Of a stretch of DNA of 50,385 nt, positions 2,368 through 44,545 are shown in pieces. Position 1 is the first letter of the stretch. Every line of letters starts with the position of its first letter. Below the pieces are notes generated by a model. The model was given only the letters and a program-made list of their open reading frames with translations. It searched no databases and was not told the DNA's origin. The stretch comes from a virus (Duplodnaviria > Caudoviricetes): positions 1-50,385 of the IMG/VR virus record IMGVR_UViG_3300005253_000363. One strand, written 5' to 3'. Position numbers and translations under genes: made by a program.

Positions 2368-2567
2368 ATCAAACCTACGAACTTAGGATGATAGAACATA
2401 CGAATTATGTTAGGGGGGAGGTCGTACGCAACAAGCCTCAAGTGCGTGAACACGAATACAGGAAGTTTCTTGCCAAATGTGCTGACCACGCTTTTGTGGT
2501 TGGTGATTATGAGATTCAACACAAACTAATAAAGGAGCTTGAGTTAATTGCCAATTCTTATAGATAA
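2361..2567 (+). CDS. Inserted hypothetical protein
   Basis: MLNQTYELRM...; overlaps the stub stop and the nuclease start. Confidence 0.6.
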   Translation: MLNQTYELRMIEHTNYVRGEVVRNKPQVREHEYRKFLAKCADHAFVVGDYEIQHKLIKELELIANSYR

Positions 2568-3549
2568 TTCCACAATGGAAAAAACCGCTTCCTGCCACAC
2601 AGCAGTTGCAATGGAGCGTGTCCTCCATCTCAAACCCAAAGCTGGCTCCCCCCAACTCGAAGCCGGAACCGCCATGCACAAAGCATGGGAGAAATTCTTT
2701 AATGGAGAGGATGTGGAAGTCTGTATCCTGGCCCTTCGTGAACACTACTCCTCTAAGCTCCCCTATTTTGAAGACATTAAGCCTACCTATGATCTAGCTA
2801 ATCTTGAAAACCTCTTCAGGATATGGGCTTCCAAACATCCCAACAGAGAATTTCCCTGGGTTTCTCAATATGTTGAAAAAGGATTCCAAGTCAGGTTGTT
2901 TCCTGATCTGGGAGTTGACCTGATTGGAAAGATGGACACTTTCGGGGCTGATGGAACCGGGTCTTACTGTGTGGTGGACTGGAAGACTACTGGATATAAT
3001 CTGGATACCAGATGGTTTCGTAAAATTCAGAATGGTTCGCAGGTAAGTGCATACCTCTACGCAACACAGAGACTCTTTGGATCAGCTGTATGGGTGTTAT
3101 ATATTATGGCCCTCAAGATGAAAGTGGTTCCGATGTCTAATCGGACCTGTAAGGAACATGGAATGAAATACTGGAATCCTGAGAAGAAAGAGGGATGCTA
3201 CCATGAGCATGCTGACTATAAGGTGGAATCTGCATATCGGAACAAAACGCAACTCTTGGGCTGGTATCAGGATGCCCGGTTGATTACTCAGGACTATCTT
3301 CACATCCTCGAAAATGTAAAGTCTATAGAGGACATTGGCAGGGTTCCCATGCAGGGAGTATTTAATAATTCCTGCCAGGATTGCAGCTACCGGGAATTCT
3401 GTCACTCATTCAATCGAAAGCCTGAATCAGCAGAGCAGTTATTTGATTACAAACCGTGGAGCCCATTGCTTGATATGGATAAAGAGGATATCTTTTATGA
3501 AAAAGAAATTGACTATGACGGAGCTGACGGTTCTTTGCTGGTTGTATAA
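2548..3549 (+). CDS. PD-(D/E)XK exonuclease, Cas4/AddB-like with Fe-S Cys staple
   Basis: GTAMH, GKMD, VVDWKT and QVSAY motifs; N-terminal Cys plus C-terminal CxxCx5C. Confidence 0.85.
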   Translation: MPILIDNSTMEKTASCHTAVAMERVLHLKPKAGSPQLEAGTAMHKAWEKFFNGEDVEVCILALREHYSSKLPYFEDIKPTYDLANLENLFRIWASKHPNREFPWVSQYVEKGFQVRLFPDLGVDLIGKMDTFGADGTGSYCVVDWKTTGYNLDTRWFRKIQNGSQVSAYLYATQRLFGSAVWVLYIMALKMKVVPMSNRTCKEHGMKYWNPEKKEGCYHEHADYKVESAYRNKTQLLGWYQDARLITQDYLHILENVKSIEDIGRVPMQGVFNNSCQDCSYREFCHSFNRKPESAEQLFDYKPWSPLLDMDKEDIFYEKEIDYDGADGSLLVV

Positions 3550-4212: not shown

Positions 4213-4380
4213 ATGAATGACCATGATTGGTTTGGTATTATTTGTGCCTTGCTAACGTTATTTGTTGGATTTCATTTAACAGTTAACACAAATGATATCC
4301 TTTGTAATTATCTAATTGGTCCGGTCTTTTTAGGGCTGGGGTCAACTGGACTTTATATTGAATGGGAGCAAATTAGATGA
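4213..4380 (+). CDS. Inserted 55-aa membrane protein
   Basis: MNDHDWFGIICALLTLFVG...; ATGA overlap with 4377. Confidence 0.6.
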   Translation: MNDHDWFGIICALLTLFVGFHLTVNTNDILCNYLIGPVFLGLGSTGLYIEWEQIR

Positions 4381-5177
4381 AGATACCACCTTTACATATT
4401 CTTATTGTTGGAGAACCCTTCGCCGGAAAAAGTACCTTCTGCCGTACCATGCCCACCCCGAATCTTGTATTCTTCTTTGATCCTGTTGGTAAAGATGAAG
4501 CCTATCTCGAATGCGGGGATGTACAGGATTTAGACAACGGCCAACCATTAAAGACCCTTCAAGGGGCTCCAATGAAAAGAGTCTGGAGCCGTGAGAAGGA
4601 GCCTAAACTGCTCTTTCAGGTGGAATACTATCATGATGGGGAATGGGTTGAAGATCCAATAAAGGGAGGGTTCAAGCCTACTCCCGTAGCCTACGAGCAA
4701 TTTTGCAAGAGACTTATCAACATAGACCAAGAGTTTGATTACTGGAATACAATCAGTCTTGACTCTTACTCCGGAGCTGAACTTTCTGCCATGCTCCGTG
4801 AAAAATTTAAGCTTAATCCAGGAACAAAATTCGATCTCCGGCATTGGGGTGGCGGGGCTAGATCGGAACTTGAGATGGCGATATTCGCAAGGTTCGGGAT
4901 GTTTCCAATGAATGTTGTAGTGATCTGCCACGAGAAAGTATACCAGAACGATAAGACCGGAGAAATTATCCGGCAGGCAGATACCTACGGAAATCTTGGT
5001 AACACATTTGGCAGAGGCTTCTCCGAAATGTATCGTATGGTTAATATCCCGAATGTAGGTCGCCAGTTACAAACCCAGAAAGACGCAATGTGGAACGCAA
5101 ATTCCAAATATGCTCCAAATCCCTGTGAGCCTAGTTATCAAGCGGTAATCGCTTCAATCACCAATCAAGGAGAATAA
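4377..5177 (+). CDS. P-loop ATPase, Sak4/AAA_24-like recombinase
   Basis: Walker A GEPFAGKS, ISLDS Walker B, NVVVICHE; lies between exonuclease and SSB. Confidence 0.8.
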   Translation: MKIPPLHILIVGEPFAGKSTFCRTMPTPNLVFFFDPVGKDEAYLECGDVQDLDNGQPLKTLQGAPMKRVWSREKEPKLLFQVEYYHDGEWVEDPIKGGFKPTPVAYEQFCKRLINIDQEFDYWNTISLDSYSGAELSAMLREKFKLNPGTKFDLRHWGGGARSELEMAIFARFGMFPMNVVVICHEKVYQNDKTGEIIRQADTYGNLGNTFGRGFSEMYRMVNIPNVGRQLQTQKDAMWNANSKYAPNPCEPSYQAVIASITNQGE

Positions 5178-5178
5178 A

Positions 5179-5787
5179 ATGGCAAAGATAGGTACTGTAC
5201 CAAATGTAGTAAATGATCCATCAACACAGATTGATCCGGGGGCTTATGTTTTTAATTGTGAGTCCGTAAAAGAGGGAGACTACGAAGGACAGTTGATCTA
5301 TGACGCAGTATTCCGAGCCCAGCAACCGGTCACTCATCTAGGGCAGACTCATTACGAGCGTTGGTTTATCGGGAATGAGGAAGACCCTGAAGCTCTTCTA
5401 CCGGATACTTGGACAAAGAGAGCCGGACACATGAAAAAATGCTGCGAAGCTATGGGCGTTCCTTTTCTTGGGCAGAATCCTGATATGATCGTTCAGCAGA
5501 TGGTCGGTAAGCAGGTCTGTGCAAAGGTTGTTCATAAAGCAAGCAAAGACGGGAAGTATACCAATGCCCGTGTCTCTCAGTGGGGCCAACCTGGAACCAT
5601 GACCCCGGAAGTCATTGGATCGGATAATGGGCAGCCTCCTGTCCAAGCTCCGGCAGTAGCGGCTCCAATGCCTGCTGGAACACCGGGAGTAGGGACTCCA
5701 GTAGCTCCTCAGACTGGAATGCCTGCAAGCCCAGCTGGAGGTCAATCGGCACCTGCGGGCCCTCCTCTGCCTCCTCAGTACCAGTAA
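5179..5787 (+). CDS. Single-stranded DNA-binding protein (DUF669-like) with Pro/Ala-rich tail
   Basis: IDPGAY start, beta-rich core, MVGKQVCAKV...YTNARV; position after Sak4-like gene. Confidence 0.65.
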   Translation: MAKIGTVPNVVNDPSTQIDPGAYVFNCESVKEGDYEGQLIYDAVFRAQQPVTHLGQTHYERWFIGNEEDPEALLPDTWTKRAGHMKKCCEAMGVPFLGQNPDMIVQQMVGKQVCAKVVHKASKDGKYTNARVSQWGQPGTMTPEVIGSDNGQPPVQAPAVAAPMPAGTPGVGTPVAPQTGMPASPAGGQSAPAGPPLPPQYQ

Positions 5788-5816
5788 CGGGGAGGCCACA
5801 AGCAGGAGTTGTCTGG

Positions 5817-5924
5817 TTGACTTGTGATGTATGTAATCAGAAGGTGGATTCAATGGATTTTGATGGACATACGACCAAGCATTTGACTGATCCAAAAGAT
5901 CCTTATTTTGTGCAGTTACGATAA
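5817..5924 (+). CDS. 35-aa C2H2 zinc-finger-like micro-protein
   Basis: TTG start after AGGAG; MTCDVCNQKVDSMDFDGHTTKHL (CxxC-x11-HxxxH). Confidence 0.45.
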   Translation: MTCDVCNQKVDSMDFDGHTTKHLTDPKDPYFVQLR

Positions 5925-5925
5925 A

Positions 5926-6097
5926 GCTGGGCCTAAGTGCATAAGCGTAGGTGCGTCCTAAGAGACCTTGTAAAGGGCAGACAATGACCCTACCGCCCAG
6001 TGATTAATCTAGCGGGGGAAGATTCTCGGCTGGCCCAGTCGTTAGGGATACTCAGGCCCCGCTCACCTGCTTCTGGTGTTAATTACCTGGGTATCTC
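5926..6097 (+). ncRNA. Two closed-stem structured RNA candidates (5926-6039, 6045-6097)
   Basis: gctgggcc/ggcccagt and gggatactcagg/cctgggtatctc terminal pairings. Confidence 0.45.
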
Positions 6098-6132
6098 TGG
6101 GCAGGAATTTTAGACTTGGAGGTAGATCAATA

Positions 6133-6282
6133 ATGCTCAATCCTCAACGCCAGAAGTTTTTGGAGAAGAAACTGGAGATTGCCAGGGCGCGTGATCCGAT
6201 AATCAAATCGGAGATTGAATTAATCGAAATTGCCGAAGAGTTATCAGCGGCGTTGTGGAAGTTGCGGGAGAAGAAGAAATAG
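6133..6282 (+). CDS. Small hypothetical protein
   Basis: GGAGG RBS; MLNPQRQKFL... Confidence 0.6.
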   Translation: MLNPQRQKFLEKKLEIARARDPIIKSEIELIEIAEELSAALWKLREKKK

Positions 6283-6736
6283 GACTGTGAGCGGCGTGGA
6301 AGGACACGCGGAAAGGACACATCATTGGATAACTCACTGGCTAGAGTTTGCAGGTTAGTACGCTTGGATCGATACCATAGCTGGGTGTGTCTGGAAACCT
6401 GAAGCAGACATCAATCTCTGCCTCACAGTCTGATTTAAATTTGAGTTGTGAGGGGCCTTTCTCAGGGTGCCGCTGGGGAAATCCCAACCGTACGGGCCAG
6501 CGAGAGCGAAAGCAAATCGGGAAGCCTAGGTTGACTGACGAACTGGTCACATCAGGTCGTGAGTACACAGGAGGGAAAGGATAAAACGTAGGCGTCGGAC
6601 CACGCCAACCCTCACAACTCATTCAAATATATTGCCGGGTAAAGCATCTGTTCAAGGCCGCGCAACATCCTAGGGTGCGGTTGCAGATGGGCGGTCCACT
6701 CTCATGGAGAAGGGAAGTTGCAACCCGCCACCCGGT
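6282..6736 (+). ncRNA. Three tandem structured RNA candidates (6282-6431, 6442-6621, 6634-6736), partly tRNA-like
   Basis: gactgtgag/ctcacagtc, gagttgtgaggg/ccctcacaactc and gccgggt/acccggt closing stems with internal hairpins and GAAA loops. Confidence 0.6.
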
Positions 6737-6755
6737 TCGATTTTGGAGGAAGAAA

Positions 6756-6941
6756 ATGAAGCCGAAGCATGTATGGATTATTGAGTATGGGACTGGCAGT
6801 GAGTGGAATCCTGATAGTGACCACGACGGAGATTTTACTATTTTCTTTGTCAAGAGGGATGCCGTTGAACACATGAAAAAGAACCATACAGGACACCCAA
6901 CCAATCTCCGGGTCCGCAAATATATGAGGGAAGAAAAATGA
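6756..6941 (+). CDS. Hypothetical protein
   Basis: GGAGG RBS; MKPKHVWIIEY...LRVRKY. Confidence 0.65.
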   Translation: MKPKHVWIIEYGTGSEWNPDSDHDGDFTIFFVKRDAVEHMKKNHTGHPTNLRVRKYMREEK

Positions 6942-7267
6942 CCCCCACCGATGAAGTCCTAGCAGAGTTTGTCTTTAAGTTACTGAAAGCCGAAAAAGCT
7001 GATGAAGCTTATTGGGTATCCTATTATTCAAGACAATTTCTGGAAACCAGCAAAGCAATGTTTGAAGGCTATAATGCCCCCTTTATCCGCCACCTGATTG
7101 AGGAGGCGATGGTTGAGCGGAGGTTCAACTGTTTTAGTGAATTTCGAGATAATCAATGGAGTTATACTTTTGCTTTTGCTCTTGGGGATGAGAACAGAGA
7201 ACCAGAAATGAACGAAAACAAAACCCGCGCCGTAGCACTGGCCGCATTTAGAACGGGGGAAAGATGA
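6938..7267 (+). CDS. Phage ABA-sandwich-like protein (paralog 1)
   Basis: N-terminal LAE helix; C-terminal RAVALAA. Confidence 0.5.
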   Translation: MTPTDEVLAEFVFKLLKAEKADEAYWVSYYSRQFLETSKAMFEGYNAPFIRHLIEEAMVERRFNCFSEFRDNQWSYTFAFALGDENREPEMNENKTRAVALAAFRTGER

Positions 7268-7479
7268 ACACTTGTAAGGATTGTAAGTGGTGGGATGCCT
7301 ACCACAAAGATGACCCGGCTAATTCGTTTGGGATGTGTAGGGCCGAGAGGTTCGCTGAAGATGTCCAGGCTGTTGTTAAAAGTCCAATTGAAGGTGAGTG
7401 GCCTGCTGATGGGAAATATGACGGATTCGACACAGCCCCTGACTTCGGCTGTATCCACTGGGAGAAGAAAAATGAGTGA
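7264..7479 (+). CDS. Small Cys-rich protein
   Basis: CKDCKWW...GMC...FGCIHWE. Confidence 0.65.
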   Translation: MNTCKDCKWWDAYHKDDPANSFGMCRAERFAEDVQAVVKSPIEGEWPADGKYDGFDTAPDFGCIHWEKKNE

Positions 7480-8134
7480 CATTCTTGAGGAAGCAAAGAA
7501 AGAGGTTGATAGGTGGTATGGTCCAGGAAATTACGAGACGCCGAGGAATATAGTACAAAGGCTCATCGCAGAAGTGGAGCGGTTGCGTCACGAAGCGTTG
7601 CCTCATCCAAAGATATTAGCCGACAGATATCAGTTTTTAAAAGAGGCCGTGAATAGCCAGTATTGCAAAAGTGGTAAGCAAATTGATTGGAGTAATGATG
7701 ATGTTGTCTGGGCTGTCCAGAAAATCGACTCCCTCACTAAGGAGCGGGATGAGTACCGCAAAACAATAGAGCTTGCTGAAGAGGGGCTACTAGGGACAGA
7801 TGTTCAGTTGGCCGCAAAAATCAAAGACCTCACCGTCAAGCTGGCCTCTGCTAAAGCTGATAATGAGCAACTGGAAAAGGACTGGGCGCGTTGCTCGGAA
7901 GGTTGGTCGAAGAGTCAGTTAGATTTGAAGTGTCTTGAAGAGTCCACTGTTGACAAGAAAGCGTGGGATCAGTTGAAAGCCGAAAAAGCCAGGCTCAAGG
8001 AGCGGGTGGGGAAGCCAACTCTGGATGTGAAATCAATTCAGTGTGATAGATGCGGAGAAACGCTTGTAAATATTCCAAAACTCCGGATGTATCACACCTG
8101 CAACGATCCAGCGCAAGGGAGTGAAAAGATATGA
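7472..8134 (+). CDS. Coiled-coil protein with Ead/Ea22-like N-terminus and C-terminal Zn motif
   Basis: IVQRLIAEVERLR, heptad repeats, CDRC...HTC. Confidence 0.6.
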   Translation: MSDILEEAKKEVDRWYGPGNYETPRNIVQRLIAEVERLRHEALPHPKILADRYQFLKEAVNSQYCKSGKQIDWSNDDVVWAVQKIDSLTKERDEYRKTIELAEEGLLGTDVQLAAKIKDLTVKLASAKADNEQLEKDWARCSEGWSKSQLDLKCLEESTVDKKAWDQLKAEKARLKERVGKPTLDVKSIQCDRCGETLVNIPKLRMYHTCNDPAQGSEKI

Positions 8135-8502
8135 CCCCCTCCAATCAGAAGCAACTAGCAGAGAAGGCGGCGGAGTTTTTGGGGTTGGAAAAAGCAAATA
8201 ATCCCATTAATGGCAACTACTATGTAATGCCCTTACATATGCTTCAAGCAGGACGCCTAGAAGACTTAGCGGACCATTTCTTCGAGGAAACTACCTCTGC
8301 CCCCATCCTCATGCACCTTGCGTTAAAGGAGATGGAGAAGAGGGGAATACGGCTTTGTATGATGCAAGGATTCAAAGATAATAGATGGCATTGTCAATAT
8401 ACGGATACTCCTGAAGGCGTAGCAAACACGCACGATGAAATGTCTATTCATGAAAACTATTTCATAGCATTCTGGACGGCGTTACTGGAGGCGACAAGGT
8501 GA
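8131..8502 (+). CDS. Phage ABA-sandwich-like protein (paralog 2)
   Basis: LAEKAAEFLG...IAFWTALLEA. Confidence 0.5.
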   Translation: MTPSNQKQLAEKAAEFLGLEKANNPINGNYYVMPLHMLQAGRLEDLADHFFEETTSAPILMHLALKEMEKRGIRLCMMQGFKDNRWHCQYTDTPEGVANTHDEMSIHENYFIAFWTALLEATR

Positions 8503-9683: not shown

Positions 9684-10042
9684 CCCTAGAGCAAATAACA
9701 GCCGTGGCAGAGGAAGTTTGGGGATGGGATAAGCATAGCTCTCCGGGATTGTGGTTTGATCTTAATAGGGTTGAAAGCAAATTAAGAACCTTAGATGATT
9801 TGAAGCTGGAGTTAGAATCCTGGTCCGGCTTCGGCAGGACGGTGGAGGCTATGGCTGATAGGGAGTTTGTATTGTTGATTGACAACACCCCAGGCTTCGT
9901 TAAATTAAAGCCAAATTTAATCAGCTACAGCTACGAAGGTGGTCCTGTCCCAAAGCTTACAGCTAAAGAAATAATCGAAGCAACCCACCTCGCCGCCCTC
10001 GAAGCGAAGCGGAAGGAGAAGGAAGATGCGGAAGGTTCATAA
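9680..10042 (+). CDS. Phage ABA-sandwich-like protein (paralog 4)
   Basis: AVAEEVWGW...EATHLAALEA. Confidence 0.55.
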   Translation: MTLEQITAVAEEVWGWDKHSSPGLWFDLNRVESKLRTLDDLKLELESWSGFGRTVEAMADREFVLLIDNTPGFVKLKPNLISYSYEGGPVPKLTAKEIIEATHLAALEAKRKEKEDAEGS

Positions 10043-10242: not shown

Positions 10243-12144
10243 ATGATCCAATCCAATAAACAAGTCCCCGACTGGGGAGATGCTTCATCCCGTCTTATTC
10301 TTATCGGGGAAGCTCCAGGCCGTGAAGAGGAACAACGTGGTCAGCCCTTTGTAGGAGCTTCAGGGCTCAAGCTCAATGAGTGGTGGGCCAGAGCAGGACT
10401 TCATCGTGGGATGTTTTACATTACAAATGTCCTTCCATCCCGTCCGTGGAATAATGACATCTCCAAGGTTCCTCAAGAGGAGTTGGATTATTGGGCAGAG
10501 CATCTGAGGAAGAAGATTAGTGGACTCCCGGAGCCGTTTATTCTGATTCCAACCGGGAAGACTGCACTCAGAGCACTCTTAGGAAAGGATAATATCTCAG
10601 ACCTCAGAGGATCTATTCTCTCTTATGAAGACGAGGGTAGGACAATCAAAGTGATTCCTACAATTCATCCAGCGGCGACTCTCAGAGCAAAGAAGTTCGA
10701 GGCCAGATGTATCTATGACTGGATGAGGATTGCTTATGAGGGAGGGTTTCGGGAGGTCAGACTGCCGAAAAGGGACCATATTATAGCTCCTCCAATGGAT
10801 CAGTGTGAGAACTACGCATATAGGGTCTTAGAGCTCCAAAAACCTCTGGCTGTAGATATTGAGACCCACCCTCAAGAAGGAATTACCTGTGTAGGGTTTG
10901 CAACTGGACCTCAGCAGTCGTTCACCATTCCCTTCGGAGTCAAACGCTCTATCCACCTTACCGGCAACAAACCGAAAGAAGTAAAGGAACGAGAGACGAA
11001 GAAAGCCAATGACCGCATCTCCAAGGCAGTCTTTCACAAGGAGCATCCCCTCGAAAGTTACCATACAAAGAAGAGAGAGCTCAATTCAATAGAGAAATGG
11101 AAGATCCAGAAGAGACCTCTCGTAGTAATCTGCCGGATTGTAGAGGAGTATGAGAAGGAGCATAAGCTGCCCTCTCCAGATTGGGAATCAGATGGCGGGT
11201 ATTTTATTACAGTAGGCTACTGGGAAACGGAGGAACAGAATGAGAAAGCTAAAGATATTATCAGATCGCTTATTGAAGGAGAGAATCCACTCATCTTCCA
11301 CAATGGATTCTATGATACCTACTGGCTCAAGGACTGGCTCGGTTGTGATATACAGAACTGGCACTGGGACACCCTTGCTATGCACCATTGTCTTGTCCCC
11401 AATGAGGAACACTCACTTGACTTCCTCGCATCAGTCTACACCTCAGAACCATTCTGGAAGAAAGAAACCAAAGAAGCAGAGGCCAGTGGAAAGTATTACA
11501 AGAAGCAGGAAGTCCTCTGGAAATACAACGGGAAAGATGTAGCGGTTACTTTTGAGCTTTACGAGAAATTCCTGAAGATGCTCCAGGATTCTGGGCGGAT
11601 GGATTTCTACTGGAAGCATTATTATAACTTGTATGAGCCTCTGCTGGAGCTATCTTTGACTGGAATCAAGACTGACATTGAAAAGAGGAGTCAGCGGCGG
11701 GTGCAGTTTCAGGAGGAGCTTCAAGTTCTCCTCAAAGAAATCGAAGAACTGGCAGAGAAGCCTCTGCATGGAGCGAAGGCCCTTTCCAGTAAAAAGGTTC
11801 AAGAGTATCTCTATGAAGACCTGAAACTCCCCAAGCAGAAACGATACCGACCAGAAAAGAAAGAGAAAACTTCTACGGCTGATGAACTGGCAATTAGGAC
11901 TCTGATGCTCAGGTTTCCTGAGAAGTTGAATGTTGTAGGAGAGAAGATTCTTAGATGCCAGAGACTGAATAAATTACTTGGGTATCTGAAAGAAGCAAAG
12001 ATCGACCCTGATGGAAGATTGAGAAGTCAGTATAAATTCAATACGACTACGGGAAGATTGGCGAGTGGAAGTAATCCTTACGGAACTGGCGATAATGCCC
12101 AGAACGTTGACCGGGAGCTTCGAAACATTTATGTTGCTGGCTGA
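10243..12144 (+). CDS. polA: DNA polymerase A, N-terminal part: family-4 uracil-DNA glycosylase, 3'-5' exonuclease, thumb and first palm segment
   Basis: UDG motifs GEAPG, PFVGASG, YITNV, HPAA; Exo motifs DIET, HNGFYD, YNGKD; PolA TTGRLAS...NAQNV...RNIY; stops just before motif A. Confidence 0.92.
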   Translation: MIQSNKQVPDWGDASSRLILIGEAPGREEEQRGQPFVGASGLKLNEWWARAGLHRGMFYITNVLPSRPWNNDISKVPQEELDYWAEHLRKKISGLPEPFILIPTGKTALRALLGKDNISDLRGSILSYEDEGRTIKVIPTIHPAATLRAKKFEARCIYDWMRIAYEGGFREVRLPKRDHIIAPPMDQCENYAYRVLELQKPLAVDIETHPQEGITCVGFATGPQQSFTIPFGVKRSIHLTGNKPKEVKERETKKANDRISKAVFHKEHPLESYHTKKRELNSIEKWKIQKRPLVVICRIVEEYEKEHKLPSPDWESDGGYFITVGYWETEEQNEKAKDIIRSLIEGENPLIFHNGFYDTYWLKDWLGCDIQNWHWDTLAMHHCLVPNEEHSLDFLASVYTSEPFWKKETKEAEASGKYYKKQEVLWKYNGKDVAVTFELYEKFLKMLQDSGRMDFYWKHYYNLYEPLLELSLTGIKTDIEKRSQRRVQFQEELQVLLKEIEELAEKPLHGAKALSSKKVQEYLYEDLKLPKQKRYRPEKKEKTSTADELAIRTLMLRFPEKLNVVGEKILRCQRLNKLLGYLKEAKIDPDGRLRSQYKFNTTTGRLASGSNPYGTGDNAQNVDRELRNIYVAG

Positions 12145-12616
12145 TAAACAAATCAAAGAATTAATCCTGAATCATAACTTGTTGACTCCCTACGAACTGG
12201 AGAAGAAAGTCTTTGAGGGAGTCTCCTATGGACTGTCGAGTTGTAGTTATGATTTGAGGCTTAGTGAGCTGGAACTTCTTTGGGGATCACCTCTAAGTCT
12301 CAAGATCGAGCCGGGTGGGTTTCGTCTAGGTTGTACCCTCGAAACAATTAAAATGCCGCATAATATAGTAGGGCTCATCAAGGACAAATCTACATGGGCC
12401 AGAAGGGGATTGTCTGTATTCAATACTTTAATTGATCCAGGCTTCGAGGGACAGATTACTCTTGAGTTGAAGAATCAAGGAACAGAGCTTCTTAAGATGC
12501 CCTATGGTATTGGTATCGCCCAAATCATATTCTTCGAGTGCGGGGAAGTGGAGAATCCTTACAGCGGAAAATATCAGGGCCAGACTGGAATTACTGGGCC
12601 GAAGGAGGAGAAATGA
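12131..12616 (+). CDS. dcd: dCTP deaminase (trimeric dUTPase fold)
   Basis: SYGLSSCSYDLRL, KSTWARRGL, IDPGFEGQITLE, IAQIIF and YSGKYQGQ motifs. Confidence 0.9.
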   Translation: MLLADKQIKELILNHNLLTPYELEKKVFEGVSYGLSSCSYDLRLSELELLWGSPLSLKIEPGGFRLGCTLETIKMPHNIVGLIKDKSTWARRGLSVFNTLIDPGFEGQITLELKNQGTELLKMPYGIGIAQIIFFECGEVENPYSGKYQGQTGITGPKEEK

Positions 12617-12619
12617 AAA

Positions 12620-12865
12620 ATGAGTAGAAAAACTGTTTTTATTTATGTTATTGAGGTTAAACTCCCGTGGAAAAGAACTTATCAAGTGCCTGCTGGTCCT
12701 CAAGGTATATTTTGTACCGACTACAAAACTGCATTAAAAGAACTTGAAGAATACCGAATAGACCTTGATCCTGAAAAGGATTGTCCTAAGTCTGAATATA
12801 GGATTGTTATTTATGCGGCTGTAAGAGACCTTTACGGGATACTTGCAAAAGAGGCTGTGAAATGA
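12620..12865 (+). CDS. Hypothetical protein
   Basis: Strong RBS; coupled to neighbours. Confidence 0.6.
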   Translation: MSRKTVFIYVIEVKLPWKRTYQVPAGPQGIFCTDYKTALKELEEYRIDLDPEKDCPKSEYRIVIYAAVRDLYGILAKEAVK

Positions 12866-13044
12866 AACCCTTCGACATCGGACTTACAATTTTATTCAGC
12901 TTTGGACTAGGTATTGCAATAGGTCACATACAGGAAGCTCAGTGGGCTCAAATTGATATCAATGCTCTCAAAGCTCAGGTGGAGAAGTTGCATTGTGTTG
13001 GAGAAATCACTTATCCTGAAATGTTGGAGGAGGGGAGGAAATGA
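12862..13044 (+). CDS. Small membrane-anchored protein
   Basis: N-terminal hydrophobic helix. Confidence 0.55.
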   Translation: MKPFDIGLTILFSFGLGIAIGHIQEAQWAQIDINALKAQVEKLHCVGEITYPEMLEEGRK

Positions 13045-13211
13045 GGAATACAAATTCGCCAGTCTGGGTTGTTGAAACTGTTTATCGTAATATGCTCCAT
13101 ACGAGAGAGGACGCAAGGAAATTTCAACGTTATAGAATTAAGAATCCAGAAGCCTTTCCAAAGAAAGAGAATCAACACAGAGTTATTATAAGAAAGGCAA
13201 AAATGAAATGA
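13041..13211 (+). CDS. 56-aa basic hypothetical protein
   Basis: MRNTNSPVWVVE...KAKMK*; ATGA overlap with 13208. Confidence 0.55.
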   Translation: MRNTNSPVWVVETVYRNMLHTREDARKFQRYRIKNPEAFPKKENQHRVIIRKAKMK

Positions 13212-13987
13212 CTCCCTTCCTCATGGAACTCGACCTCTCCCAGGTAGAATCACGCATCTGTTATATGCTCACTCGTGATCCTGTCCTAGTCAAGCAGGCT
13301 CAAAGCCAGCCTTGGGAGTTTAACGGGCATACAGAAACTGCTCGGATGATTTATGGAGTAGAAGACCCTACTCCCCTCCAGTACTATCTAGGCAAGAAAA
13401 CATCTCATGGAGTCATGAGAGGAATGCAGGGAAAGAAACTGGCAGACGAATTATTAAAAGAAGGCACCGTAATGGCAGTCACTGAATGTGATTGGCTGAT
13501 TCAACGATTCTTCGAGACGAAACCAGCAATCCGGGATGTGTACTTTGTTGAAGTCCGTCAGCAGGTTTGGGATCACCGGAAACTTACGAATTCTTTTGGC
13601 CGTGTTATCGAGTGGCCTTTTGATAGATTCGGGGACGATCTCTATCGAGAAGCTTACTCGTGGCCTCTTCAATCGGATGCTGCTGACCTTATCAATCAAC
13701 AGGGATTGATTCCAATGCATCATTGGTTGAAGCAGGGTAAAATGTATACCAAGATCCTGGCTCAGGTTCATGATTCACTGCTGTTCAATACCTGTATCGA
13801 GGAAGCCTATGATGTAGCACTGGCCTTTAAAGGATGGATTGCAGAGCCTATTGAGTATCCGGCTGGGCCACTTTCGGTGCCGGTGACTTTTAAGATTGGC
13901 AAGACTTGGGCTGGGGATCATGAGTGGAAGAGACTACCGAGTAGGGAAGAATTTAACGAGAAAATAAAAGAGATTATAGGAGGTTAG
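13208..13987 (+). CDS. polA: DNA polymerase A, C-terminal catalytic part (motifs A, B, C)
   Basis: DLSQVESR (A), KKTSHGVMRG (divergent B), NSFGR, QSDAAD, QVHDS (C). Confidence 0.92.
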   Translation: MTPFLMELDLSQVESRICYMLTRDPVLVKQAQSQPWEFNGHTETARMIYGVEDPTPLQYYLGKKTSHGVMRGMQGKKLADELLKEGTVMAVTECDWLIQRFFETKPAIRDVYFVEVRQQVWDHRKLTNSFGRVIEWPFDRFGDDLYREAYSWPLQSDAADLINQQGLIPMHHWLKQGKMYTKILAQVHDSLLFNTCIEEAYDVALAFKGWIAEPIEYPAGPLSVPVTFKIGKTWAGDHEWKRLPSREEFNEKIKEIIGG

Positions 13988-14237: not shown

Positions 14238-14443
14238 TTAAAAAACCAACCCTAGACTCAATCGACAAACGACTTCTCCACATGCGGAGACTGTTCAATA
14301 TCATGAAGGCTCACAAGAGGCATCCCTTGATGGATGATGCTTTCAAGTCCCTCAAGCGTGAAGCTCGTAGCCTTGATTCCATGATGCGCGAAGCTGTTAA
14401 ATCCGGTGATGTGGAGTTCAGGCCCCGTGAAAAAAAGGTATGA
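14234..14443 (+). CDS. Hypothetical protein
   Basis: Coupled ORF. Confidence 0.55.
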   Translation: MIKKPTLDSIDKRLLHMRRLFNIMKAHKRHPLMDDAFKSLKREARSLDSMMREAVKSGDVEFRPREKKV

Positions 14444-15653
14444 GTATGAGACAAATACCAACTTTATAGCTCTTTACAAGTACCATTGTGGAACTTCTCA
14501 GGTTCCTGATTCGTTTCATAAATGGAGTTCGATCAGCCTTCTGGCTGCTTGTATGGGGAATAATATATGGTTGGAGAAATTCAAGGGGGATAGGCTTTAC
14601 CCGAATCTCTATGTCCTCCTGATCGGTCCTTCGGCTGTTGGTAAGGGTATAGCTATCGGCAAGGCCCACAAGTTTGCGGATTATGAACCTGGAATCATAA
14701 ATCCCCATAGAATATCTACCACTAAGAGGGGAAATATCCAGCTCATGTCCCGTCCTGCAAGATTTAAGGCGCAAGAGTATCACGGTTCCAGGATATATAC
14801 CATCTCACCAGAGCTGGTTAATGACATTGGTTCCGGTCCCTTGGCTGATGAATGGGTTCGCTGGATGACTGCCATGTTCACTGAAACAGATACCAAGTGT
14901 ACTGATTCTACGGGAGTACATGGTATTCAGCTGCTTGACGAACCTATGATTAATTGGCTTGGTGGGAGTACCGAGGAGTGGATGCGAAAGAGTATTACGG
15001 AGGATGCAATCACTGGCGGGTTCTTTGCTCGAACTGTAGTAGTTTCAGAGGAGGCTAATTACAGTCGCCGCATTCATAAGCCTACAGTTCCTTGGGACTA
15101 TGACGCTGTTAAAGAGCATCTTATAAGGAGAATACAAGGTTTCTGCCGCGTTGAGGGTCAGATGGTACTCTCACCGGAAGCAGAACAGATTGATGCTATT
15201 TGGTTTCATAATCGTCCACCACCTGATGAAGAGTGGGAGAGTGCGATGTGGAACCGGGAGCATGATATTATCCTGAAGGTTGCAATGGTGGTTGCCATGA
15301 GCGATCTTTCATGTTGGGGACATGATAGATATAACTTGGTAATTAATGGCCTTCATATTCAGGCCGCTCAACAATGGGTGACTAAAGTGCATAGTGATGT
15401 CAAGCCTCTTATAAAGATTCACGCAACTACGAGAGAGTCTATGTTTTTTGATATAGTCGTTAAATTTATTAAGGGATCAAGGGACGGTATTAATCATACA
15501 ACTCTCCTGAGAAAAGTTTATGGGCGGGGAGTTACGACAAAGTATCTGGCAAATATAATAGCGACTCTTATGGAAGCCGGGCATGTGGATATAGATTTCC
15601 GGGGAGATAGGAGAGCTAAATATTATGTGTGGAAGAGGAAGAGGTTAGGGTAA
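14406..15653 (+). CDS. DUF3987/YfjI-like P-loop NTPase, putative replicative helicase with C-terminal wHTH
   Basis: FHKWSSISLLAA, YPNLYVLLIGPSAVGKG (Walker A), GGFFAR; true start may be GTG near 14427. Confidence 0.75.
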   Translation: MMWSSGPVKKRYEYETNTNFIALYKYHCGTSQVPDSFHKWSSISLLAACMGNNIWLEKFKGDRLYPNLYVLLIGPSAVGKGIAIGKAHKFADYEPGIINPHRISTTKRGNIQLMSRPARFKAQEYHGSRIYTISPELVNDIGSGPLADEWVRWMTAMFTETDTKCTDSTGVHGIQLLDEPMINWLGGSTEEWMRKSITEDAITGGFFARTVVVSEEANYSRRIHKPTVPWDYDAVKEHLIRRIQGFCRVEGQMVLSPEAEQIDAIWFHNRPPPDEEWESAMWNREHDIILKVAMVVAMSDLSCWGHDRYNLVINGLHIQAAQQWVTKVHSDVKPLIKIHATTRESMFFDIVVKFIKGSRDGINHTTLLRKVYGRGVTTKYLANIIATLMEAGHVDIDFRGDRRAKYYVWKRKRLG

Positions 15654-37618: not shown

Positions 37619-38295
37619 TAATGACCTCCTTTGACGAGTTGAAGATAGTCATCCATTGTATTGATGTGAAGGTCATCTCTGGAGCGGATTCTGGCTTGCT
37701 GTTCGATATAGTCCACTGGGGCTCCTGAGTTTCTAAGGTAATCCAAGTAGGCCTGGGTTTCATCCGAGGCCTTGGAGACAAATGTCTGCTTGGGGAGGAT
37801 ACTGACTGCTGAGGCCAAAGCGTCGATGATGTCTTTAATGGTGGACATGGGGAAGTCCAAGACTTCTTCCAGAAGGGAATACTGGGATTTCTTGACAAAG
37901 AGGCGGCCTTGGGAGACTACCGGCTGAAGATGGGTTCTGATCCTGAAGTCCTTGTTCATGGAGGTAGGGTGGACTATGGACTGGGAAGGAAGGTTGATTC
38001 CTTTTTCGTAAGCATCAAGAGAGACTGAATCCGCAAAGAGTCCTTGCTGGGCGTTGCCTTCAATGCCGAAGACTTCAGGCTTGTACTTGGCGTTGAATTC
38101 GTAGATTTTCTGGTAGATCTTTTGGGTGGCACAGCGTTCAGCCCATGTTTCACGGACAAAGATTCGGTTGGCTGCATCGGAGGAGACTGCTACGATTGCA
38201 GATCGGGCTTTGGTTTTTTGTTTGTTCTCCTTGCCTCCGGCTGGATCTAGGAAGCAGACTGTGGAGATGAGGTAGTCTCTTGAGAGCTTCTGCAT
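37618..38295 (-). CDS. terL: Terminase large subunit, C-terminal RNase H-like nuclease part
   Basis: FLDPA, FGIEGNAQQ, KDFRI, DFP...KDIIDALA motifs. Confidence 0.88.
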   Translation of the reverse strand: MQKLSRDYLISTVCFLDPAGGKENKQKTKARSAIVAVSSDAANRIFVRETWAERCATQKIYQKIYEFNAKYKPEVFGIEGNAQQGLFADSVSLDAYEKGINLPSQSIVHPTSMNKDFRIRTHLQPVVSQGRLFVKKSQYSLLEEVLDFPMSTIKDIIDALASAVSILPKQTFVSKASDETQAYLDYLRNSGAPVDYIEQQARIRSRDDLHINTMDDYLQLVKGGH

Positions 38296-38507
38296 GCTTC
38301 AATCTGTTCCCAACGAACTCTGGGAACTGGACCTCCTTCAGGGACGTTGGGAAACTGAGGACTGGAGAGTGTGATGTGAATAGCGTTGAATTCGTGGACA
38401 AGAGCCCCCGAACCGACTCCTACGATTTCTACTCCTTCTGGCAAGTCTAGGATCTCTTTTAAGTCTTTATAAGTAAGACGAAGATAGCCGACTTTATCCT
38501 GATTCAT
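38247..38507 (-). CDS. Hypothetical protein
   Basis: LDLPEG...FPNVPEG; RBS. Confidence 0.6.
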   Translation of the reverse strand: MNQDKVGYLRLTYKDLKEILDLPEGVEIVGVGSGALVHEFNAIHITLSSPQFPNVPEGGPVPRVRWEQIEACRSSQETTSSPQSAS

Positions 38508-39069
38508 GTTCCTTCTCCTCAGTTAAGATTGTATAAAGTTTCCTTGTTGCTTTGATGTCCTCCAGTGCATCATGGGCATCGAACTCGATGTCGAAGTGGT
38601 GGCAGACAGTTTCCAGCTTTTGATTGGGAAGACTGGTATCTGTCTCGATCAGGTATCGAGCGAGGAATGATTGGACATCCAGCTTGGCCCACATGATGTA
38701 AGCTCCGTAGTAGTCGTTCTTGTTTTTCTTGAAGGCTGCTCGGAGGAACTTGTCATCGAAGCCTACATTGTAGCCTGCAAGCACGAACTTGTCTCTGGAA
38801 TCGAATCGGTCTATGTGGCGTTGCAGAGCAGTCTCGAATTTGTAGATTCCCTCGGATTGGGATTGGAAACTCTCGAAGTCCTTTTCGGAGAACTTGTTCT
38901 TCATGAGAGCTTCTGGAGAAATGACTGAATCGGGACCGGGCTTCATGAAGATTTCGGATTCTTCCATCATCTGGCCGTCGATTTCGATTAAATAACCGAT
39001 TTGGATGATATCGTTTGTGAAGGCGTTTATGCCGGAGGTTTCTGTGTCGAGCCAGAGGATTTTTCCCAT
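38494..39069 (-). CDS. DEDDh 3'-5' exonuclease (DnaQ-like)
   Basis: LDTETSG, GYNVGFD, AHDALED. Confidence 0.9.
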   Translation of the reverse strand: MGKILWLDTETSGINAFTNDIIQIGYLIEIDGQMMEESEIFMKPGPDSVISPEALMKNKFSEKDFESFQSQSEGIYKFETALQRHIDRFDSRDKFVLAGYNVGFDDKFLRAAFKKNKNDYYGAYIMWAKLDVQSFLARYLIETDTSLPNQKLETVCHHFDIEFDAHDALEDIKATRKLYTILTEEKEHESG

Positions 39070-39368
39070 TAGATTTTAGTTTCGTCCAGTTTATGTTCTC
39101 CACACCAATCACTAACAAACACTACAGGCCAACCATTCAAGGTAGGCGCATTTCGGCGACAACGACCAATATTGGATTCAGTGGTTCGTACAGACTCGGC
39201 TTCTTCCACAGGAACAATTTTTCCCGGCCTCGCTTCTACAATCTTACTAAAACTCCCTTTAACGATATAAACTGGGGGTTGCTTCAAAACAAACCACATG
39301 CAAGTCTTACATTTATTTTTTCCTTCGTGATGATTCCAGTTATCTTCTGACATATTATTTCTCCTCAA
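39069..39368 (-). CDS. Cys-rich hypothetical protein
   Basis: CKTC...GRCRRNAP...WP...DWCGEH. Confidence 0.65.
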   Translation of the reverse strand: MRRNNMSEDNWNHHEGKNKCKTCMWFVLKQPPVYIVKGSFSKIVEARPGKIVPVEEAESVRTTESNIGRCRRNAPTLNGWPVVFVSDWCGEHKLDETKI

Positions 39369-39652
39369 AAACCGAAAAGTTTTTTTAGTCTGATATAATA
39401 TTCAGACTCGTCCATAAATTCAGTGTTTGTTCTAAATCTAACAATACGATCAAACTCAAATGATTTACTTTTAAGCCTTTCAAGTTCCAAGATAACTTCT
39501 TGAGTCTTGTTTTTCTTGCCGAGCAGTTCAGTTGTCCTTCCGGTTATTTCTGAAGACCTTAAACCAAGATATTGTTTCAAATCGTCAAATGAGGTCATGT
39601 AAATTTCATCCATGAGTTTAAGATTGATTAACAAAACTTCCCAGTTATCCAA
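39365..39652 (-). CDS. Hypothetical protein (AT-rich)
   Basis: ORF overlapping the TerL-N stop. Confidence 0.55.
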   Translation of the reverse strand: MDNWEVLLINLKLMDEIYMTSFDDLKQYLGLRSSEITGRTTELLGKKNKTQEVILELERLKSKSFEFDRIVRFRTNTEFMDESEYYIRLKKLFGF

Positions 39653-44357: not shown

Positions 44358-44545
44358 TTTAATACTCTTTTAATAATGCTTTTGGCTTCTTTAGCAGCAG
44401 AGTCTACTACAAATTTGTTGAAACTAGCACGCTGGCCAACTTCGCTGGTTGCGTTCAATAAATCTATAGCACGCTGGATGGAATCCATCTGTTCTAGGGA
44501 TTTAAATCTAATCATCCGCTTGTCGGATTTTCTTTCGCTTGTCAT
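44354..44545 (-). CDS. RHH / DUF1778-like DNA-binding protein
   Basis: RMIRF...IQRA...SFNKFVVDSA. Confidence 0.5.
   Translation of the reverse strand: MTSERKSDKRMIRFKSLEQMDSIQRAIDLLNATSEVGQRASFNKFVVDSAAKEAKSIIKRVLK

Follow-up and report, generated by a model that had tools for sequence, protein, structure and literature searches.

Conserved folded modules on the gene strand of an early operon in an uncultured marine-sediment phage: possible punctuation of the early mRNA

A short stretch within the replication genes of an uncultured marine-sediment phage carries four folded elements, here called modules E, A, B and C, and the analysis supports these as conserved, strand-specific structures outside current RNA families. 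The window referred to below is the whole stretch of DNA that was analysed, a 97%-complete virus record of 50,385 nucleotides. We suggest that the modules may act in cis as punctuation and insulators of the early mRNA and may also mark cassette boundaries, a reading to which we assign a probability of roughly 0.45. The original prediction had described five closed-stem units in tandem, some of them tRNA-like. Four of the five (A, B, C and the second unit, which lies within E) were borne out, whereas the first was not.

Setting and units of the structured stretch

The structured stretch (Table 1) lies on the gene strand of a replication/recombination operon of early genes. It has Sak4-like and 202-aa genes on one side and primase/helicase-like and PolA genes on the other, and all of its flanking genes are on this same strand. 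The phage encodes its own recombination set, consisting of a PD-(D/E)XK exonuclease and the Sak4-like annealing protein (PHROGs and Pfam). The comparison set comprised three genomes, namely the window, a phage 75% identical to it (G002) and an unrelated phage (G001, which gave no tblastx match to the window at 1e-5), together with short contig pieces. Between the window and G002 the 202-aa flanking gene shows 77% DNA identity (z 39.7), and tblastx of 5739-5924 against G002 1197-1382 gives 79%, in a match that partly overlaps the end of the 202-aa gene. The homologue of ORF61 lies at 3012-3185 of G002, in a different gene order.

Table 1. Features of the structured stretch, in window coordinates
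Feature	Position	Strand	Description
35-codon ORF	5817..5924	+	TTG start, C-x2-C ... H-x3-H pattern; conserved in G002
Variable spacer (first predicted unit)	5926..6026 (claimed 5926-6039)	+	Weak, ambiguous folding
Module E	6027..6100	+	6-bp hairpin 6027-6041, then 15-bp hairpin 6042-6100 with small apical hairpin
Degenerate second copy of A 5' strand, AGACTTGGAG	6108..6122	+	Pairwise alignment of 5985-6135 with G002 1540-1690
ORF49, small gene cassette between E and A	6133..6282	+	49 codons, Shine-Dalgarno sequence
Module A	6282..6431	+	10-bp closing stem (6282-6291 with 6422-6431, including one G-U), D-like hairpin 6294-6309, long central arm, T-like hairpin 6404-6421
A/U-rich A-B linker	6432..6441	+	
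Module B	6442..6621	+	Perfect 13-bp closing stem (6442-6454 with 6609-6621), 1-nt bulge, 8-bp helix, multi-hairpin interior
A/U-rich B-C linker, TTCAAATATATT	6622..6633	+	
Module C	6634..6736	+	Three-way junction: P1 6634-6640/6730-6736 (7 bp, including one G-U), P2 CATCTG/CAGATG, P3 GGCGG/CCGCC; two variable hairpin tips
Shine-Dalgarno sequence and ORF61	6745-6749 and 6756-6941	+	Start 8 and 19 nt past module C end

Relatives were sought in several ways. The 202-aa protein as query led to one related stretch out of two candidates (G002), and a 279-aa protein to none out of two. Alignment of PolA, with N-terminal peptides as queries, gave one related sequence in 32, again G002. A metagenome scan gave one in 264, whose locus is identical to G002 over 6242 bases and is therefore not independent. 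A blastn search of 5700-7000 against GenBank phages returned no match, and the 12 runs listed as containing parts of the stretch include no RNA run.

Terminal stems of 10, 13 and 7 bp close the units that begin at 6282, 6442 and 6634, as had been predicted, and the stem of the second unit (6045-6097) sits within the 15-bp hairpin of module E. By textbook standards, RNase III would cut closing stems of 7-13 bp poorly where they sit on multi-branch junctions, which counts against the punctuation reading. The closed stem proposed for the first unit did not hold up: its 5' strand pairs equally well with 5995-6001, and its folding z-score is -0.43. Nor is this unit conserved, being unalignable with G002 1383-1565 (z 0.2), where the sequence is longer and different. 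A packing like that of a tRNA operon had also been proposed. The short A/U-rich spacers are there, but the array is interrupted by ORF49, which separates the first two predicted units from the last three. The Shine-Dalgarno sequence of ORF49 is a GGAGG within AGACTTGGAG, its stop codon abuts the A stem, and its product matched no Pfam or PHROG family.

The internal hairpins were likewise found as described. In module B, GAAA loops are present and the hairpin GGCGT-CGGACC-ACGCC adjoins the 3' strand. In module A, the D-like hairpin (GCGTG-GAAGGA-CACGC) and the T-like hairpin (GCAGA-CATCAATC-TCTGC) both appear in the minimum-energy fold. The T-like loop of A, CAUCAAUC, has 8 nt and no UUCRA, CCA is absent, as the prediction had said, and UGAUUU lies 3' of the A closing strand. 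ARAGORN found no gene in the window, either with default settings or with introns allowed and a lowered threshold (-ps); at an 80% threshold it gave three hits, none fitting unit boundaries. The Rfam tRNA and tmRNA models gave nothing in 5700-7000 up to E = 10. This lack of a canonical match had been anticipated, and the A stem has 10 bp rather than 7. Moreover, other class A members have no cloverleaf shape, one G002 copy being a 46-nt hairpin. The proposal that the units are tRNA-mimic decoys is thus not supported. Across the whole window no Rfam family matched at the gathering score. The three matches within 5700-7000 (E 3.5-6.7) were all on the minus strand, and the families concerned are eukaryotic or belong to animal viruses. 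On inspection by eye the stems were not read as hammerhead, box C/D or K-turn elements, the core motifs being absent. We found no description of the modules in the full-text literature; the supplementary motif list of a catalogue of 10,006 candidate viral RNAs (PMC10690425) lay outside that search and may contain C or E.

In register, the folding z-scores are -1.6 for E, -2.3 for A, -2.7 for C and -4.09 for B. None of 200 shuffles folded as well as B, whose closing stem alone stands out in window-only statistics. Out of register, ten 150-nt windows across the region gave a mean z of -0.52; 184 windows from other parts of the first 15 kb averaged -0.06, and the folding energy of the region is not exceptional in this sense. 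The whole window contains 12 inverted repeats of at least 11 nt within 220 nt, two of which are those of A and B. The gap within the split polymerase gene (12610-13215), considered as a second structured region, gave a z of -0.36 and no Rfam match. Statistics drawn from the window are therefore weak as an argument for structure, and the case is a comparative one.

Recurrence of the modules in other phages

Modules A, B and C are present twice each in G002, in the order A-B, C-A-B, C, compared with A-B-C in the window. The array of G001, in the order C-C-B (modules C, C' and B), is on its gene strand and follows a RecF/SMC-like ATPase gene and an unnamed 333-aa gene. Within each genome the copies occupy one locus only, and all of them have one orientation relative to the genes. 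In seven of seven arrays, 18-48 nt lie between the end of the last module and a start codon with a Shine-Dalgarno sequence. Closing stems, linkers and the C core recur in G002, in the unrelated G001 and in contigs of all four metagenome runs that were compared (four studies). These contigs carry parts of A or C, and their flanks differ from those of the window in at least two of the runs. We accept units A, B, C and E as real because stems, linkers and the C core recur in other phages. From these comparisons the modules appear to be independent of the phage backbone.

These observations bear on two alternatives. It is hardly credible that the stems are functionless chance inverted repeats in a non-coding gap. 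Such a view would agree with the weak window-only statistics and with the lack of support for the first unit, but for A, B, C and E it is contradicted by the comparison: stems, linkers and C core turn up again, with compensatory changes, in several metagenomes and in a phage that is unrelated. Very improbable, too, is the idea that the stretch forms all or part of a replication origin, where a structured transcript or a single-stranded DNA hairpin would prime synthesis or load the replisome. The stretch does lie inside the replication module of the window, and in G001 it follows the RecF/SMC-like ATPase and 333-aa genes. However, close relatives (window and G002) differ in how many modules they have and in what order, and genes are inserted between modules. 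Iterons are absent here, as is any extended AT-rich stretch for unwinding, and a better origin-like repeat region lies at 46.5-47.2 kb of the window.

The outer 8-10 bp of the A and B closing stems have the same letters in all copies, and the inner pairs change on both sides. The closing stem of A is shared with both G002 copies, A1 (12 bp) and A2 (9 bp); in A2 pair 9 has changed from U-A to G-C. In a contig of run X6 the stem lacks its inner 3 bp. The outer 9-10 bp of B are the same in four of four copies (window, G002 B1, G002 B2 and G001 B). At pair 10 the window has A-U where the three others have G-C, and pairs 12-13, G-C in the window, are C-G in G002 B2. A core of GACTG/CAGTC is kept in all three copies of A. 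At each of the three A-B junctions, the A 3' strand, linker and B 5' strand form a 24-25-nt pattern, once with an extra T. For the A and B interiors, six comparisons gave z from -0.7 to 1.8, no better than shuffled sequence. These interiors are unalignable between relatives, and no conserved protein ORF runs across A-C. Compensatory changes among homologues, which the original prediction had proposed as a check, were found in the closing stems, in E and in the metagenome contigs, and on this evidence pairing in the modules appears to be under selection. The identity of the letters in the outer stems across unrelated phages exceeds what pairing needs and could reflect a sequence-specific protein or recent transfer.

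Module E can be aligned with its counterpart in G002 (z 14.2). In the 15-bp stem, two pairs have changed on both sides and one on one side, one is broken (A.C), and three U.G pairs are kept in both phages. Pairing in the small hairpin is retained through a change from U-A to U.G. A contig of run X5 spans 5963-6113, which includes module E, with 12 differences and 4 gaps.

The alignment of module C behind model R1, which was built from three copies, has 96.7% of its cells paired, compared with 29-56% when slid. The model finds the unseeded C2 of G001 at E = 0.006, and the window copy shares a 23-nt exact match with that unrelated phage. The B-C linker TTCAAATATATT is near-identical before G002 C2 and in a contig of run X4. 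Covariation in C is thin: only two pairs have changed on both sides, and the alignment, which was fitted by the model, shows both changes in its two weakest rows. One of these rows is probably a chance match inside a gene. A model R1 match at 9938-9989 (E 0.87) lies inside a 126-codon ORF (TTG start, internal ATG) and was taken as chance. A pattern for the C ends returned 14 stretches. Those of G002 and G001 are real, and the other 12, in contigs of 56-69% GC with unrelated interiors, were rejected. The C core pattern found only G001 and G002 among viral contigs; in species genomes it gave 49 stretches, none with the upstream 5' strand.

The four patterns used on species genomes revealed no real module copy there. 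The A interior pattern (gap 34) had no match, and the A-B junction 17-mer gave 91 stretches, about the number expected by chance, none with the adjoining B strand and one sharing 4 further bases. A single match to the B pattern, in a GC-rich stretch that reads as coding, was rejected. A scan with the D-like hairpin pattern also gave one match, in a GC-rich coding region. Among viral contigs the A-B junction pattern was found only in G002.

Small ORFs come and go between the modules. ORF49 is present in the window only: in G002, module E leads directly into module A where the window has AGACTTGGAG and ORF49. In run X5 there is no cover over 6178-6254, and a loose end before 6284 reads as the end of a different ORF, in the place of ORF49. 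In G002 alone, B and C are separated by ORF70 and a lipoprotein-like ORF.

At six variable positions (A, B2, C P1, C P3 and two in E), pairing is kept through G-U on the gene strand only; the A.C in E of G002 is the one variable position that favours the opposite strand. The gene strand also gives the more stable fold in 13 of 15 units. A crude consensus scan of 4300-8300, covering sigma-70 promoters only, found no plus-strand promoter-like site inside 5788-6755 and no plus-strand terminator-like site, with totals that did not exceed those of shuffles.

The strand bias is relevant to the view that these are DNA elements whose RNA structure is incidental, either hairpin-ended selfish repeats (MITE/REP) or recombination linkers of a PeSL- or integron-like kind. 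The stems would then be terminal inverted repeats or sites folded in single-stranded DNA. Several findings fit: arm letters are conserved while the content between them is replaced, and presence/absence differences in small ORFs fall exactly at module borders, with the degenerate duplicate of the A 5' strand flanking ORF49. The elements also occur in unrelated phages, the phage encodes a PD-(D/E)XK exonuclease and a Sak4-like annealing protein, and the PeSLs of T4-type phages, as far as their published description goes (PMC2839356), offer a precedent. Yet there are six gene-strand G-U substitutions against one opposite, and double-stranded DNA sites need no complementarity. No target-site duplication flanks the three full A copies, the four B copies or the A copy of run X6. 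Each genome has the elements at one locus, with no dispersed copies and, for the four patterns, none in species genomes. All copies have a single orientation, and C and E are conserved inside and not just at their ends. Neither integrase, transposase, reverse transcriptase nor HUH enzyme was found in the 69 window ORFs (Pfam 69, PHROGs 59; ORFs of <45 codons and some overlapping frames fell outside the scan). We regard this view as quite unlikely.

Possible functions in the early transcript

We hypothesize that the modules are self-contained folded RNA elements within a long early transcript that runs through the replication/recombination genes in the sense direction. Closed by its terminal helix, each would be kept from pairing with neighbouring ribosome-binding sites, and short conserved single-stranded A/U-rich linkers (GAUUUAAAUU, UUCAAAUAU, CAUCAAAUU) would join one to the next. 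Host endonucleases might make either of two kinds of cut, an RNase E type of cut within the linkers or an RNase III type within E and B, whose helices are long and quasi-continuous. Upstream of the cut, the mRNA would then terminate in a closed module that blocks 3' exonucleases; downstream of it, the mRNA would start with a closed module that precedes the start codon by 18-48 nt and serves as 5' stabiliser and insulator. Closing-helix ends and linkers would in addition be crossover points for the swapping of small accessory genes and module interiors. We infer this crossover role for the outer 8-10 bp and the linkers because theirs are the only letters common to otherwise different phages. 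The comparisons show the structures, their conservation, their strand and the differences in gene presence; transcription of the modules, their cutting and their stabilising action are likewise what we infer.

One observation that bears on function is the constancy of the A interior in one subfamily, which is 93-98% identical across contigs of four runs from four studies, compared with 84% for the flanking gene in run X5. This suggests a function of its own, beyond the needs of a plain insulator. Run X11 has a D-like hairpin of GTGTG/CACAC where the window has GCGTG/CACGC, and in run X4 the T-like hairpin is swapped for another with a 5-bp stem and an 8-nt loop. Flanks vary as well, A carrying a B-type 3' strand as flank in run X4 and a Shine-Dalgarno sequence and ATG directly 3' of it in run X6.

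The modules might accordingly be genes for separate, processed, trans-acting small RNAs, in which helix and linker form a processing handle and the variable interior carries specificity, as a decoy, sponge or guide against host defence or host RNA. They would then travel between phages as RNA-gene cassettes, like tRNA genes. The near-identity of the whole A unit in four runs and four studies, at least two with other flanks (X6, X4), fits this, as does the figure of only 84% for the X5 flanking gene. D-like and T-like hairpins are kept in that A subfamily by compensatory change or like-for-like replacement, closed ends suit exonuclease-resistant stable RNAs, and the modules are common to unrelated phages. 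Against it, no tRNA, tmRNA, Y RNA or other Rfam family matched, and the units are not bracketed by promoter-like or terminator-like sites. The A and B interiors are unrelated in the closest relative, where one A copy is a bare 46-nt hairpin, which would be odd for a syntenic trans function. Partner proteins (Ro, RtcB and Cas in a Pfam scan, and reverse transcriptase) were not found among the window ORFs scanned. We consider trans-acting RNAs an unlikely explanation.

A bolder and likewise improbable proposal is that the modules are an undescribed class of portable RNA cassettes moving between unrelated marine-sediment phages. The letter-conserved terminal helix and A/U linker would be a universal 'foot', read by a dedicated host or phage factor for excision or loading, and the replaceable interior would do the work, perhaps as a decoy, sponge or guide directed at host defence or host RNA. 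Unlike the plain insulator reading, this would account for both the letter identity of the foot and the 93-98% identity of the A interior. If true, it would describe an RNA counterpart of gene cassettes.

Should the punctuation and insulator reading that we prefer be true, standardised self-closing RNA modules would separate and protect early cistrons in uncultured marine-sediment phages. The same modules would be seams for the exchange of small accessory genes, even between phages that have no other detectable similarity, and RNA-level expression signals would be linked to mosaic phage genome evolution. They would also be ready-made candidates for RNA insulators. The three-way junction of C and the multi-study A interior are concrete new candidate RNA families.

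Comparison with known systems

T7-like phages have RNase III processing hairpins between early genes (R0.3, R0.5, R1.1 and others), and Bacillus phages have the SP82 5' stabiliser; in both, protective structured ends remain after cutting. Like them, the modules are conserved and lie between genes, where they would fold in the sense RNA of a polycistronic early message. Each T7 site is one hairpin of ~50-60 nt that has an internal loop and spans about two turns of helix, a geometry approached only by E (15 bp plus apical helix) and B (13 + 8 bp), whereas A and C are junction structures (10 and 7 bp).

In t-elements and the tRNA punctuation model, tRNA-like processing signals are cut by RNase P and RNase Z. 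Module A of the window is similar in being stem-closed and cloverleaf-like with a hairpin stacked on its 3' strand, and the tandem packing between genes is also shared. It differs in matching no tRNA model, in its 8-nt loop without T-loop sequence and in its 10-bp stem, and neither the other A copies nor the members of classes B and C have the shape of a tRNA.

Correia/NEMIS, ERIC and REP/BIME elements are bacterial hairpin repeats of MITE-like or REP-like type that are transcribed. The modules have a similar size range, have terminal inverted repeats, lie at intergenic sites inside operons and may have comparable effects on RNA cutting and stability. Unlike these repeats, they show no target-site duplication, dispersed copies, host copies or transposase in the material searched; their interiors are unrelated within a class and their orientation is the same throughout.

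Integron attC sites have conserved paired ends and a centre variable in sequence and length, with one element per small promoterless cassette, and function as a folded single strand, features that the modules recall. In attC, R'' (RYYYAAC) is on the 5' arm and R' (GTTRRRY) on the 3' arm, and the tyrosine integrase IntI is encoded nearby. Module B, in contrast, has GAGTTGTG on its 5' arm and CACAACTC on its 3' arm, which is the opposite order (GTTG 5', CAAC 3'). No integrase was found among the window ORFs scanned, and modules occur in tandem without a gene between them.

Parallels also exist with the promoter-early stem-loops (PeSLs), whose cassettes in T4-type phages were reportedly also treated by Comeau et al. 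in 2014 (PMC4122927). PeSLs of T4-type phages are described as intergenic motifs mediating shuffling (Arbiol et al. 2010, PMC2839356), each consisting, in that account, of a strong sigma-70 promoter and a small G/C stem-loop that terminates transcription. According to the same description they are conserved motifs of ~100 bp with a stem-loop, beside small orphan genes in variable early regions; their ends lie just 5' of a Shine-Dalgarno sequence with its start codon, and it is at these motifs that relatives differ by insertions, deletions and replacements (PMC2839356). The modules are alike in these respects, and their borders also coincide with insertions or deletions of small orphan genes (ORF49, ORF70 with the lipoprotein-like ORF, and the coding end in run X5). 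Set against PeSLs as described there, the modules have no promoter-like or terminator-like site on the gene strand within the stretch. They are 46-180-nt multi-branch folds with long-range closing stems and fall into three sequence classes common to phages without detectable protein similarity. If our preferred reading is correct, the PeSL idea would extend past T4-type phages and past promoter/terminator motifs.

Closed structures in the replication module

The window comprises an entire IMG/VR virus record (50,385 bases, completeness judged to be 97%), and the structured stretch is located in its replication/recombination module, where all neighbouring genes are on the + strand. Judged by its structural genes, this is probably a tailed phage whose portal and adaptor are of the SU10 type. 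When 69 window ORFs were compared with Pfam, and 59 of these also with PHROGs, no integrase, transposase, reverse transcriptase, RNA polymerase, RNase III, Ro or RtcB was found.

Features of the window, with closing stems of the structured modules
Feature	Position	Strand	Remarks
PD-(D/E)XK exonuclease	2548-3549	+	
Sak4-like annealing protein	4377-5177	+	
202-aa protein without family	5179-5787	+	
35-codon zinc-finger-like ORF	5817-5924	+	TTG start; C-x2-C ... H-x3-H pattern
Hairpin E	6042-6100		15-bp stem
ORF49	6133-6282		good Shine-Dalgarno
Module A	6282-6431		6282-6291/6422-6431, 10 bp, one G-U
Module B	6442-6621		6442-6454/6609-6621, 13 bp, perfect
Module C	6634-6736		6634-6640/6730-6736, 7 bp, one G-U
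UDG-PolA fusion	10243-12144	+	UDG, exonuclease, N-terminal polymerase part
Conserved ORF	12065-12616	+	between polymerase pieces
Rest of PolA	13208-13987	+	C-terminal polymerase part
DUF3987 protein	14406-15653	+	
T7-type terminase nuclease domain	37621-38295	-	
RNase T-like exonuclease gene	38497-39069	-	
398-aa ORF without family	39631-40824	-	
Macro-domain protein	44545-45048	-	E 2.7e-20; among small early genes
Three 53-nt direct repeats	46577-46766		spacing 63 and 74
Two 47-nt repeats	47035-47156		spacing 75

Four of the five closed units in the original prediction were recovered: A, B and C at their predicted positions, and the second unit as part of hairpin E. The first (5926-6039) did not hold up, its 5' strand having an equally good second partner, its z-score being -0.43 and the corresponding sequence of a related phage being unrelated and longer. 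The proposed tandem array is interrupted, in that ORF49 separates E from A; A, B and C are joined by short linkers. Both the D-like and the T-like hairpin described for A are present in its minimum-energy fold; the idea of tRNA mimicry failed all tests run (ARAGORN; Rfam tRNA and tmRNA models).

In register, the folding z-scores are -2.3 for A, -4.1 for B, -2.7 for C and -1.6 for E, and none of 200 shuffles of B folds as well. Taken as one piece, the 861 nt have z-scores of -2.4 (+ strand) and -1.4 (minus strand). Out of register, ten 150-nt windows over the region have a mean z of -0.52, compared to -0.06 for 184 windows taken from the rest of the first 15 kb, and the whole 50-kb window contains 12 inverted repeats of at least 11 nt within 220 nt. 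The statistics from the window alone are modest.

Between A and B (6422-6453), the 3' strand of the former and the 5' strand of the latter would be perfectly complementary were it not for differences that are almost all transitions. The two could form a hairpin of seven Watson-Crick and four G-U pairs, with one mismatch and a 7-nt loop, UUUAAAU. Judged from the letters, such a hairpin would compete with both closing stems; it might be left over from a common origin or might serve as a switch.

Elsewhere in the window, the family A DNA polymerase is split, and the conserved ORF between its pieces is followed by approximately 590 nt with small ORFs; the split region showed no match to an intron family and no excess of folding. 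The terminase gene may also be split or interrupted (37621-40824). The Macro-domain protein is a possible counter-defence candidate, through removal of ADP-ribose marks, and the two groups of repeats, in a region without long ORFs, look like an origin or operator region.

Conservation among diverged phages

The comparison set consisted of three genomes (the window, G002 and G001) and short contig pieces. G002 (loci L002, L003 and L163), with flanking genes about 75% identical, was the single close relative obtained; metagenome locus L095 is the same sequence and not another relative. Its polymerase has the same split and an additional gap, about 590 nt long, following the first piece, and the 35-codon ORF directly 5' of the structured stretch is kept in both phages (L002 1277-1382). 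Downstream of the 202-aa gene and this small ORF, G002 has a long spacer unlike that of the window. The order E-A-B-ORF70-C-short A-B-lipoprotein-like ORF-C follows, and then the next shared gene. G001 (27.9 kb, 81% complete), recovered with a pattern for both ends of C, carries a tandem C-C-B array on the gene strand, 48 nt 5' of a small secreted-looking ORF. Over its whole length, tblastx at 1e-5 gave no match to the window, and the sole blastn match, from its 6-kb locus L101, is 23 letters within C. That the modules arose by chance is extremely improbable.

The outer closing helix of A and B is the same in all copies, with 9-10 outer pairs of B in 4/4 (one G-U) and the core of A in 3/3. Further in, at pair 10 of B the window has A-U where the three other copies have G-C, at pairs 12-13 of B it has G-C where the second B of G002 has C-G, and A pair 9 is U-A or G-C. 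Whole units vary from 46 to 152 nt for A and from 125 to 180 nt for B, and alignment of their interiors between copies does not improve on shuffled sequence (z -0.7 to 1.8, six comparisons; 39.7 for the adjoining gene). The A-B junction, comprising the A 3' strand, linker and B 5' strand, follows a 24-25-nt pattern in 3/3 copies, with an extra T in one, and an A/U-rich stretch of the UCAAAU or UUAAAU type lies 3' of most modules.

Copies of C are homologous, being alignable over their full length (z 4.3-10.6). C forms a three-way junction of P1 (GCCGGGU/ACCCGGY), a joining strand AAAR, P2 (CAUC(UG)/(CA)GAUG) and P3 (GGCGG/CYGCC), in which P3 abuts P2 and P1 and both hairpin tips are variable. 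A covariance model built on three copies found the unseeded second copy of G001 at E = 0.006 and the most diverged G002 copy only at E = 1.1. In the model-fitted alignment 96.7% of cells are paired, compared to 29-56% with the partners slid. Since the only two pairs altered on both sides come from its two weakest rows, C rests on conservation and consistent pairing rather than on strong covariation. A partial match to the P3 domain at 9938-9989 (E 0.87), with one pair altered on both sides, falls inside a 126-codon ORF and was treated as chance. The stem of E is kept in G002, with two pairs altered on both sides, one altered on one side and one broken.

Contigs of four metagenome runs, from four marine and marine-sediment studies, were compared with window 5100-7400, and all four runs contained parts of the structured stretch. 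One (X4) matches 6299-6401 with 2/103 differences, followed by 21 other letters forming a new hairpin (5-bp stem, 8-nt loop), a B-type 3' strand and the beginning of a C. X6 matches 6291-6422 with 8/132 differences; it differs from the window in its flanks, closes with a shorter stem, and has a Shine-Dalgarno and ATG 21 nt past that stem. X11 matches 6322-6404 (4/83 differences), and at its loose 5' end the D-like hairpin has one pair altered on both sides. X5 represents a phage related to the window phage; identity amounts to 84% in the 202-aa gene and to 93% in A. The interior of A is 93-98% identical across the four studies, which speaks for stand-alone, trans-acting RNAs, a reading we nevertheless consider unlikely.

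Strand preference and module borders

Six variable positions pair only on the gene strand, via G-U, and one favours the opposite strand. The gene-strand fold is the more stable in 13/15 units (10/12 and 3/3), and every copy has the orientation of the genes. On the + strand, a crude consensus scan found nothing terminator-like in 4300-8300 and nothing promoter-like within the stretch. Each genome carries the elements at one locus, no consistent target-site duplication was seen at them, and four patterns failed to find them in the species-genome collection. Together, these observations favour sense-strand RNA structures on a polycistronic early transcript, which would be transcribed and processed as such. 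Selfish repeats or recombination sites acting as DNA only are rather improbable: the strand bias speaks against them, as do the occurrence at one locus per genome and the failure to find an enzyme. An origin of replication is very improbable.

Small genes are present or absent precisely at module borders. ORF49 sits between E and A in the window only, where it is preceded by a degenerate duplicate of the A 5' strand (6108-6117) that supplies GGAGG as its Shine-Dalgarno; in G002, E directly joins A and two gene-plus-module insertions lie between B and C. In X5, the coding end of another gene takes the place of ORF49. In 7/7 arrays, 18-48 nt separate the end of the last module from a start codon. 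Genes after B modules are small and accessory-looking: Cys-rich and zinc-ribbon-like (L002 1946-2158), lipoprotein-like with a signal peptide ending LIGC (L002 2488-2669), or secreted-looking (G001, L101 2-235, - strand).

A model for the modules and its precedents

We tentatively propose, at a probability of roughly 0.45, that the RNA modules, each closed on itself, serve as punctuation and insulators of the early mRNA. Their closed helices would stop them pairing with adjacent ribosome-binding sites; endonucleases might cut either in the A/U linkers or in the long E and B helices, and closed modules at the newly made ends could shield the mRNAs. Because feet and linkers are the only letters common to the diverged phages, they would be the sites at which recombination exchanges interiors and small genes. 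Two features fall outside insulation: an A interior more conserved than neighbouring genes, and letter-identical outer stems in unrelated phages, which pairing alone does not demand.

Rfam 15 has no family matching the modules, and full-text literature searches gave no description of them; a large viral RNA catalogue (PMC10690425) may list C or E in its supplements. We group the modules with the conserved intergenic RNA or cassette-boundary motifs of phages. The nearest precedent for module borders as swap sites is provided by the PeSL motifs of T4-type phages (PMC2839356).
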